From Candidatus Parcubacteria bacterium (lineage in GTDB: Bacteria; Patescibacteriota; Minisyncoccia; Phycocordibacterales; CAYZPE01), in the NCBI GenBank assembly GCA_046050145.1, contig JBJOQC010000040.1, positions 1 to 45,162 on the forward strand: 45,162 nt of DNA, read 5' to 3'. The notes beneath the pieces were generated by a model. The model did not search any database, was not told the origin of the DNA, and saw only the letters and a list, made by a program, of their open reading frames with translations. Shown piece after piece: positions 21,390 through 22,394 of this stretch; the stretch's first letter is position 1; each line of letters begins with the position of its first letter. The translations under genes were made by a program, and so were the position numbers.

Positions 21390-21698
21390 CTCCGGTGGTA
21401 GGACTCGAACCTACAACCCCCTCGTTACATCAACCCTTCTATTTCTAAAAGGAATGGACTATATCATCATCCCGAAGGATGTGAGGCGCTTCCCCTAAAT
21501 CATTTTTGAATGATCGGGTACTCCTCGCGGATAGTCTCTGAACCTTCTCTTACTTAAAAGTGAGAGCTTGGCTGCTGATTGCCCTTTCCAAAAATTGGAT
21601 GAGGGTTTCCAGTCAATTCACCTCATTTTTCAACTCAAATTACTTTGAGAAGCTGCAACAACTTACAGCGAGACGCTCTACCATTGAGCTACACCGGA
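21390..21698 (-). tRNA. tRNA-Asn(GUU) interrupted by a group I intron (exons 21698-21665 and 21427-21390)
   Basis: Spliced sequence, arm by arm: UCCGGUG-UA-GCUC-AAUGGUA-GAGC-G-UCUCG-CUGUUAA-CGAGG-GGGUU-GUAGG-UUCGAGU-CCUAC-CACCGGA-G. It forms a full cloverleaf with U1-A72 and G73 as in bacterial tRNA-Asn. No CCA is encoded. Confidence 0.88.
21428..21664 (-). ncRNA. Group I intron, 237 nt, no ORF
   Basis: In P1 the exon GCUGU pairs with intron GCAGC, giving U.G at the 5' splice site, and the intron ends in G. The core elements are P AAUUUUUGGAAAGGGC (21596-21581), Q AAUCAGCAGCCAAGC (21580-21566), R GGUUCAGAGACUA (21544-21532) and S AUGAUAUAGUCC (21467-21456). GACUA/UAGUC forms P7. Confidence 0.9.
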
Positions 21699-21738: not shown

Positions 21739-21767
21739 ATGATAGCAAACCAAGGCTTGAATGCCAA
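21739..21767 (-). promoter_or_regulatory. Candidate tRNA promoter TTGGCA-N17-TATCAT with TGC extended -10
   Basis: On the minus strand TTGGCA lies at 21767-21762 and TGCTATCAT at 21747-21739, about 35-40 nt upstream of the tRNA 5' end. Confidence 0.45.
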
Positions 21768-21809: not shown

Positions 21810-22394
21810 TTACACAGATTCCGAAATAAAATCAGATATTTTTTTTAAAATTTCCCCCCTACCCTCTTTTGTTTTTGCTGAACAGAGAATCATTTCAGCT
21901 GCAGGCATAAGTTCTGATATTTTTTTTATTTGAGTACTTCTCTCACTCTGATTTAATGCATCTGCCTTATTAAGAAGTATGAGTGCATCCTGACCACGCT
22001 CCCGAAGTAACCGGAGAGTCTCTTCATCCATAACACTTGGTCCAACTCTTATATCGAGCACGAGAATCACCTTTCTTTTAAAAACATCCTCGAGTAAATA
22101 CCACTGGAGCATTCCTGCAATTTGATCTCTTTCCTCAGGAGACATTTGAGCGAAGCCGTACCCAGGCAAATCTACACAATAAAAAGCATTGTTAATAAGA
22201 AAAAAGTTAATTTCTTTTGTTTTCCCTGGTTTTTTGCCAGATTTTACCAAGTCTTTTTTATTAAGAATACAGTTAATAAGACTGGACTTACCGACATTTG
22301 AACGTCCCATAAAAGCTATTTGAGGCTTTTCTTCATAGAGAATATCATCTGTTCCTCGAATCCCCTTTTTAAATTCAGCACTTGTAATTTTCAT
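21810..22394 (-). CDS. engB: Ribosome biogenesis GTPase EngB/YsxC
   Basis: GRSNVGKSSLIN (G1), DLPGYG (G3), NKAD (G4). Confidence 0.9.
   Translation of the reverse strand: MKITSAEFKKGIRGTDDILYEEKPQIAFMGRSNVGKSSLINCILNKKDLVKSGKKPGKTKEINFFLINNAFYCVDLPGYGFAQMSPEERDQIAGMLQWYLLEDVFKRKVILVLDIRVGPSVMDEETLRLLRERGQDALILLNKADALNQSERSTQIKKISELMPAAEMILCSAKTKEGRGEILKKISDFISESV

Follow-up and report, generated by a model that had tools for sequence, protein, structure and literature searches.

Can a tRNA gene that is interrupted in the middle of its anticodon still yield a working tRNA, and by what means would the interruption be removed? This question is raised by contig JBJOQC010000040.1 of a Candidatus Parcubacteria bacterium (assembly GCA_046050145.1), which was analyzed over its whole 45,162 nucleotides (the window). 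Two halves of a tRNA-Asn(GUU) gene lie 237 nucleotides apart on the reverse strand of the window. An earlier inspection of the letters alone (the sequence-only reading) had read the insert as a group I intron that separates anticodon nucleotides 35 and 36, and had named a search with Rfam model RF00028 and a tRNA search on the spliced sequence as checks. From the comparisons described below we put at roughly 85% the probability that this is a functional Parcubacteria tRNA-Asn(GUU) gene, split between U35 and U36 by a group I intron that splices itself and lacks an open reading frame (ORF).

Identification of the split tRNA-Asn gene

RF00028 (Intron_gpI) matches positions 21435-21674 of the reverse strand over the full model (positions 1-253). 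The match scores 95.7 bits (E=1.5e-23) where the gathering score is 50, and no other Rfam family was matched anywhere in the window. ARAGORN in its default mode called zero tRNA genes in the window; with introns allowed it called a single gene, tRNA-Asn(gtt) i(35,237). When 49 shifted combinations of splice sites were tried with ARAGORN, an Asn product was obtained solely with an exon-final U and an intron-final G. Splicing in silico produced a canonical cloverleaf with the anticodon loop CUGUUAA. The acceptor stem UCCGGUG/CACCGGA supplies U1-A72, and the discriminator base is G73. U1-A72 with G73 is the signature of bacterial tRNA-Asn, while tRNA-Thr has G1-C72 and A73. No homing-endonuclease ORF was found inside the 237-nucleotide intron, whose longest ORF is 35 amino acids and antisense.

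The sequence-only reading agrees with these results. Its coordinates were exact for both exons and for the intron, and the RF00028 search it had named gave the 95.7 bits reported above. ARAGORN recovered tRNA-Asn(GUU) from the spliced sequence with the loop, the U1-A72 pair and the G73 that it had described, and the homing-endonuclease ORF is absent as it had stated. Insertion of a group I intron between nucleotides 35 and 36 is borne out by the Rfam model, by the intron-aware tRNA search, and by the covariation and the relative described below.

Covariation in the intron fold

Covariation was measured in a structure-blind MAFFT alignment (A2) of 37 related introns of the window's type (class A, see below). 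Versions in which the 3' partners were slid by 1-3 columns, and 500 shuffles, were used as controls. For the whole fold, 84.8% of alignment cells are in standard pairs, compared with 33-47% for slid partners. The whole-fold covariation score is 0.373, and the slid versions scored at most 0.115. Both sides change in 47/72 pairs, and the observed values were reached by 0/500 shuffles. Many compensatory changes occur in P2, P3, P4, P5, P6a, P8 and P9 (Table 1). P4 is paired in 100% of cells, with 4/6 pairs covarying, and P5 in 77.6%. The GNAA loop of L2 is kept across the intron family.

The U.G pair at the 5' splice site is invariant in 37/37 introns. The first intron nucleotide covaries with its partner, forming CG in 12, GC in 12, AU in 8 and GU in 2 of the 37. 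Because the U.G pair is invariant and the adjoining pair covaries, the 5' splice site is fixed at U35. The sequence-only reading had correctly drawn P1 as GCUGU/GCAGC with a U.G wobble, and had correctly ended the intron in G. It had also located Q (21580-21566), R (21544-21532), S (21467-21456) and the P7 helix GACUA/UAGUC correctly. Its P element (21596-21581) was misplaced; that segment lies in the 3' strand of P5a/P5, and the true 5' strand of P4, GAAUUGACUGGAAACCC, lies at approximately 21618-21603.

Two hairpins lie between P7 and the 3' strand of P3 (P3'), and by their position they are assigned as P7.1 and P7.2. In the register of the family majority they are 92.1% paired, against 36-62% for slid partners, with a score of 0.633. 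In the window's own register pairing is poor (69% and 38%) because the window P7.1 is 1 base pair shorter and MAFFT shifted that row. Both hairpins were extracted with regular-expression anchors in 72/75 class A introns among the matches listed. P7.2 folds in all 72, though its sequences are unrelated among them.

Proposed splicing pathway

The following pathway is proposed. The split gene would be transcribed from its own sigma-70-like promoter. P1 would form by pairing of the guide UUGCAGC with exon G31-U35 and intron bases 1 and 2, placing the U35.G wobble at the 5' splice site. The core would fold as P3-P8 with the P3/P7 pseudoknot, P2, P7.1, P7.2 and P9 would lie at its periphery, and the conserved GNRA loops presumably make tertiary contacts. 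In vivo, free guanosine bound in P7 would attack after U35. The terminal G at 21428 would then occupy the same pocket while the 3'-OH of U35 attacks before U36. The exons would thereby be joined to give the anticodon loop CUGUUAA, and the intron would be released. A P10 helix may form between UAAC of the 3' exon and the P1 loop GUUG.

Several points weigh against a functional, self-splicing gene. Splicing at this locus is deduced from sequence, not from experiment or transcripts. The minimum free energy (MFE) of the whole intron beats that of shuffles by a modest margin (z = -1.76); such a value is expected because the ribozyme is pseudoknotted, and the MFE gives no support. P10 is weak in the canonical register, and the proposed 4-base-pair P10 is offset by two P1-extension bases. 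The family set was retrieved by a pattern demanding GATATAGTC and G/TAA (the slash marks the splice site), so the pattern itself accounts in part for the S element and the terminal G being invariant across the family. Finally, a 45-kb view of the genome leaves room for a second, uninterrupted tRNA-Asn gene, which may exist.

Removal of the intron in vivo might depend on a host protein, such as a chaperone or maturase-like factor, instead of proceeding by autonomous self-splicing. In vivo, many group I introns rely on protein cofactors (Hausner et al. 2014, PMC3984707). Such a requirement nevertheless seems unlikely here. The window intron is compact and its core is complete, its L2 and L9 are conserved GNRA tetraloops with invariant G and A positions, and it carries stabilizing P7.1/P7.2 helices of the kind found in phage introns. 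It encodes no protein. The Azoarcus intron and phage introns self-splice in vitro.

The split gene in a syntenic relative

The engB/yihA GTPase gene directly upstream was used as a synteny marker. All EngB relatives are Patescibacteria, a group also called the candidate phyla radiation (CPR). Relatives with 80% and 79% EngB identity have contigs that stop inside the tRNA 5' exon, and relatives at or below 69% have a different gene after engB, leaving the 71% relative (L008-L010) alone informative for synteny. It retains the order engB then tRNA-Asn, with a 231-nucleotide intron at the identical site (RF00028, 91 bits). The exons of L008 are identical to those of the window, and those of L009 differ at one base. 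The L008 intron differs from the window intron by compensatory changes in P2 (CUCAAA/UUUGAG to CUUGAA/UUCAAG) and P3 (UGAGG/CCUCA to CGAGG/CCUCG), and its P6a and P7.2 hairpins are remodelled, with compensatory changes in P6 and P7.2 as well. Compensatory helix changes beside nearly unchanged exons are the pattern expected if ribozyme and tRNA are both under selection.

These changes argue against a dead gene, that is, a decayed, non-splicing intron relic in a pseudogene whose function is served by an uninterrupted tRNA-Asn copy elsewhere in the genome. A second copy could lie beyond the 45 kb that are visible, and tRNA-Asn genes that share the window's T-arm and acceptor but have no intron do occur in related organisms, on 97 metagenome contigs. 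Each of these 97 genes has at least 5 mismatches to the window's mature tRNA, and none is near engB. They are therefore genes of other organisms, and no polymorphism of intron presence and absence within the species was found among the 97 contigs. All core elements of the window intron are intact, its score is far over the Rfam threshold, and the promoter-like site is conserved, the same motif preceding the tRNA in relatives L004, L006 and L011. CPR genomes usually have single-copy tRNA genes. On this evidence a relic is very improbable.

Distribution and architecture of related introns

One genome per GTDB species was scanned with a pattern that called for the S element, an intron-final G, UAA, and a T-loop spaced as in a tRNA. 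At least 120 loci (L014-L133) were obtained, and the counts in this section are among the matches listed. A tRNA-Asn(GUU) split at the window's site was present in 109/120 loci, and thus in at least 109 further genomes. Among the remaining 11 loci, 5 are cut off less than 250 nucleotides from a contig end, 4 lie within about 470 nucleotides of one and may also be cut off, and two (L054 and L068) are apparent chance matches beside an ordinary tRNA. The hosts are mostly Patescibacteria (Parcubacteria/Paceibacterota, Saccharibacteria, Microgenomates and Peregrinibacteria). Some host records are labelled as metagenome-assembled genomes (MAGs) of Omnitrophota, Elusimicrobia, Planctomycetes or 'Gammaproteobacteria'.

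A true register two bases upstream (CU/.../UGUAA), with tRNA-Thr(UGU) as the product, can be set aside with near certainty even though ARAGORN labelled 66/120 loci 'Thr tgt i33/34' and the Williams 2020 preprint (10.1101/2020.01.27.920355) includes a seed Pgr210.Thr.2Ug with P1 cuguc/GGCAG, since the window intron would then end in A and not G, the family guide sequence GCAG(C) sets the wobble G opposite U35 and not U33, and the full-length split loci, including the window, have U1-A72 in 109/110 cases and G73 in 110/110. The Thr label was accordingly rejected as a boundary ambiguity, in which CU/GU...UG/UGUAA reads equally well as CUGU/...G/UAA. The published Thr.2Ug seed may be the same misassignment of an Asn gene as Thr.

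The 110 introns were classed by the sequence that follows AGACUA, giving 75 in class A, 20 in class B and 15 others. Class A, the window's type, has P7.1 and P7.2, whereas class B introns are compact: P7 runs straight into P3', and P4 (GGGAUAACGGUGAA...) differs. The tRNA-Asn 35/36 site is thus occupied by at least two intron architectures. Class B includes L021, L027, L033, L045, L048, L050, L087, L088, L094, L109, L114 and L118, and the other variants include L014, L015, L026, L075, L023, L025, L043 and L096. L021 and L048 gave no RF00028 report at the gathering threshold; L048 has 42.4 bits (E=1.2e-9), which is significant yet under the gathering score of 50. Because neither reaches the threshold, standard Rfam annotation misses both. 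The L021 contig, which carries a split tRNA-Asn and is labelled 'uncultured Gammaproteobacteria', also has a LOOT RNA (RF03000, 78 bits) at positions 1-120 that is unrelated to the intron.

Comparison with known introns

The sequence-only reading could recall no intron in tRNA-Asn. The novelty that this implied is refuted by the Asn.4Ug type of Williams 2020 (bioRxiv 10.1101/2020.01.27.920355) and by the 109 or more further genomic examples. According to that preprint, the four classical intron-split tRNA types were expanded to 21, with Asn.4Ug among the 17 new ones, and metagenomic assemblies of unnamed phyla had 0.49 intron-split tRNA genes per genome. Its data set dates from January 2017, and the window MAG is probably newer. 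Because Asn.4Ug was catalogued there, a tRNA-Asn intron is not new in kind. No other tRNA-Asn group I intron was found in the full-text literature that was searched. The review of Hausner et al. 2014 (PMC3984707) names none. Two papers by Mohanta describe pseudo-'introns' of 22-49 nucleotides or a chloroplast tRNA-Asn that is explicitly intron-less. Lui et al. 2021 (PMC8172020) mention no more than the presence of group I introns in some CPR tRNAs.

In the Williams preprint, seed Pam37.Asn.4Ug is a tRNA-Asn whose intron follows the fourth base of the loop, with U at -1 and G at omega, and the consensus structure has two helices between P7 and P3'. The window shares the host tRNA-Asn(GUU), the CUGU/UAA insertion, U at -1, the terminal G and helices between P7 and P3'. 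In seed Pam37 a single long hairpin separates P7 from P3' and P2 is followed by an additional helix, while the window has the commoner P7.1 and P7.2 and a minimal 4-nucleotide P1 loop. With boundaries that read CUGU/...G/UAA, the window intron is, by sequence, a further member of the Asn.4Ug type with the majority P7.1/P7.2 architecture.

The classical types, found in tRNA-Leu(UAA) of cyanobacteria and plastids, tRNA-fMet, tRNA-Ile(CAU) of Azoarcus and tRNA-Arg(CCU) of Agrobacterium, are all IC3 (GISSD, as cited in Williams 2020). They resemble the window intron in having GNRA loops in L2 and L9 and a very similar P3-P4-P6-P7 core, which reads AAAUUCGGCGAAA...CAACGCCGAGCCAAG...GGUGUAGAGACUA in the Azoarcus-type seed Aol6.Ile2.5Ug and GAAUUCGGGGAAACC...CAAUCCCGAGCCAA...GGUGUAGAGACUA in L008. 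They differ in residing in other tRNAs at 34/35 or 36/37, whereas the window insertion is at 35/36. An IC3 intron has a compact core in which the 3' strand of P3 directly follows P7, with no P7.1 or P7.2. In the IC3 seeds Leu.3Ug, Arg.5Ug, fMet.2Ug and Ile2.5Ug, GACUA leads straight to P3'. The window intron does not have this layout, since two covarying hairpins (21531-21522 and 21518-21493) intervene.

Phage introns in the DNA polymerase genes of Flavobacterium phage FpV21 and Vibrio phage 424E50-1 and in RNAP2 of Shigella phage Moonfish, which we take to be of subgroup IA2, have 70-80% nucleotide identity to the window intron over about 90-130 nucleotides of P2/P3-P7. They are collinear with it through the P7-P3' hairpins, AAGCGCC (P3'), P8 and GAUGAUAUAGUCC, and HNH endonuclease genes accompany them. 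These introns interrupt mRNAs and have different P1 targets, whereas the window intron interrupts a tRNA. P7.1 and P7.2 between P7 and P3' are an IA-like trait, and this layout, together with the sequence similarity, suggests that the window intron is phage-type (IA-like) rather than compact IC3. Its mode of action would be that of any tRNA group I intron.

The structural RNA genes of CPR characteristically harbor self-splicing introns and homing endonucleases. In the rRNA genes of CPR, group I introns were reportedly described by Brown and colleagues in 2015. The CPR rRNA introns of Tsurumaki et al. 2024 (PMC11270868), a paper with no mention of tRNA, share the host phylum with the window intron and are located in 16S and 23S rRNA genes.

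Endonucleases, viral contigs and mobility

Among the matches listed, 30/109 related introns are long (511-630 nucleotides). Most of these have a sense-strand HNH-like ORF of about 100-110 amino acids, whose start lies 20-60 nucleotides from the intron's 5' end. The ORF thus precedes the guide sequence and sits within the P1 loop. The ORF has the motif CxxC...HH...N...CxxCH and scores 19-20 bits with Pfam HNH, just below the 21.4 cutoff. Class A, class B and the other variants all include introns with such ORFs (for example L022, L042, L044, L046, L047 and L063).

The same HNH family also occurs free-standing beside the presumed target gene. In the 79% EngB relative (L006:3072-3383, reverse strand; L007 is alike), a free-standing 103-amino-acid HNH gene lies antisense between engB and tRNA-Asn, and its product is 69% identical (E=6e-54) to the intron-encoded HNH protein of L042. 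Its location beside the presumed target, not inside an intron, recalls free-standing or 'collaborative' homing; the contig ends within the tRNA.

Split tRNA-Asn genes were also found on the viral contigs L135 (IMGVR_UViG_3300028299_000003) and L140 (IMGVR_UViG_3300033153_009805), with RF00028 scores of 96 and 90 bits. These genes sit in arrays of 12-16 tRNA genes, and further cases are L136, L138 and L147. L135 also encodes tail-fibre/baseplate-like proteins and HNH endonucleases. The viral split genes run counter to the statement that phage group I introns are confined to protein-coding genes (Hausner et al. 2014, PMC3984707). On two other viral contigs (L134:6588-6651 and L146:903-966) an intron 3' end was matched and the 3' exon starts UAAAUCGA. 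No CUGU-ending 5' exon yielding tRNA-Asn was found in L134 or L146, and the match may be a group I intron in another tRNA.

The P1 target CUGU is common to all tRNAs with GUN anticodons (Asn, Asp, Tyr and His). In Williams 2020 (10.1101/2020.01.27.920355), seeds Tyr.4Ug and Asp.4Ug have the same loop position as Asn and an identical CUGU/GCAG pairing. This sequence pattern suggests that one intron lineage is able to move among GUN-anticodon tRNAs. A broader scenario would make the split gene the sole tRNA-Asn of this lineage and of much of Patescibacteria, and would have a phage-type (P7.1/P7.2) intron hopping among GUN-anticodon tRNAs, and among cells by way of phage tRNA arrays, with the HNH family. 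We offer this scenario as speculative and rather doubtful as a whole.

Features and gene context

The coordinates of the intron helices, the exons and the flanking features are given in Table 1.

Table 1. Features of the split tRNA-Asn gene and its upstream region in the window. Percentages of paired cells and counts of changing pairs refer to the 37-intron alignment.
Feature	Position	Strand	Sequence or description	Support
tRNA-Asn(GUU) 5' exon	21665..21698	-	positions 1-35; ends C32 U33 G34 U35	ARAGORN with introns, sequence
Group I intron	21428..21664	-	237 nucleotides; starts AAGUUG, ends UUGAUG; terminal G at 21428	RF00028, ARAGORN
tRNA-Asn(GUU) 3' exon	21390..21427	-	U36 A37 A38 ... A72 G73; CCA not encoded	sequence, ARAGORN
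P1	21652..21669	-	exon G31-U35 and intron A1 A2 with UUGCAGC (internal guide sequence); U35.G wobble; loop GUUG	
P2	21634..21649	-	hairpin CUCAAA-GUAA-UUUGAG	6/6 pairs change on both sides; 95.5% paired
P3, 5' strand	21619..21625	-	UGAGGUG	98.4% paired; 4/7 pairs change on both sides
P4-P5-P5a domain	21573..21615	-	P4 UG-CUGG/UCAGCA; J4/5 AAA; P5 CCCU/AGGG; P5a UCCAA/UUGGA	covariation, MFE fold
P6/P6a	21542..21572	-	GCC/GGU; CUCU/AGAG	P6 100% paired; P6a 89% paired, 4/4 pairs covary
P7, 5' strand	21532..21536	-	GACUA; end of R element; guanosine-binding helix	invariant in 37/37
P7.1	21522..21531	-	hairpin UCC-GCGA-GGA; 1 base pair shorter than family majority UCCC-GNRA-GGGA	97.3% paired; 3/4 pairs change on both sides
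P7.2	21493..21518	-	hairpin CCCGAUCAUU...AAUGAUUUAGGG	87.8% paired; 5/5 pairs covary; closing pair GC 19, CG 17
P3, 3' strand	21482..21488	-	CGCCUCA	covariation; U-A to C-G swap relative to L008
P8	21468..21481	-	hairpin CAUCC-UUCG-GGAUG	97.3% paired; 4/5 pairs covary
P7, 3' strand	21457..21461	-	UAGUC; within S element; pseudoknot with P3	invariant in 37/37
P9	21435..21452	-	hairpin CCUUUUA-GAAA-UAGAAGG; GNAA loop conserved	85.9% paired; 6/7 pairs covary
Promoter-like site	21739..21767	-	TTGGCA-17-(TG)TATCAT; about 40 nucleotides upstream of the tRNA	10/12 consensus; extended -10 TG
engB/yihA GTPase gene	21810..22394	-	directly upstream; synteny marker	Pfam, synteny

The neighbors of the split gene in the window are housekeeping genes identified with Pfam, comprising priA, def, fmt, hpf, the engB/yihA GTPase gene, and genes for a NUDIX protein and an FtsJ-like methyltransferase. 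The split tRNA-Asn is the lone tRNA gene of the 45-kb contig, and default annotation would show this stretch as free of tRNA.

In the 80% EngB relative (L004:3083-3351 and L005:676-940), an incomplete copy of the 5' part of tRNA-Asn, GCUCCGGUGUAGCUUAGUGGUGGAG, stands about 150 nucleotides upstream of the real 5' exon, and the sequence after it is unrelated. The 5' splice site is the exact end point of the L004 contig (...CGCTGT). This end may represent a branch in the assembly graph of that sample, with several continuations after CUGU.

Implications

Default tRNA finders overlook the split gene, as ARAGORN without the intron option illustrates here, and the authors of tRNAscan-SE state that such intron-split genes are not reported (PMC8450103). 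Because default finders skip it, tRNA-Asn appears 'missing' in CPR annotations and completeness checks. Calls that do allow introns can mislabel the split tRNA-Asn as tRNA-Thr(UGU).

The locus is one more well-supported example of a little-publicised class of introns and reveals no new mechanism. For the family, over 100 species-level genomes have an intron at the 35/36 site of tRNA-Asn, and the introns there are of more than one architecture. For the organism, if the split gene is the sole tRNA-Asn gene, splicing would be essential for translation and the decoding of every Asn codon would depend on a ribozyme.

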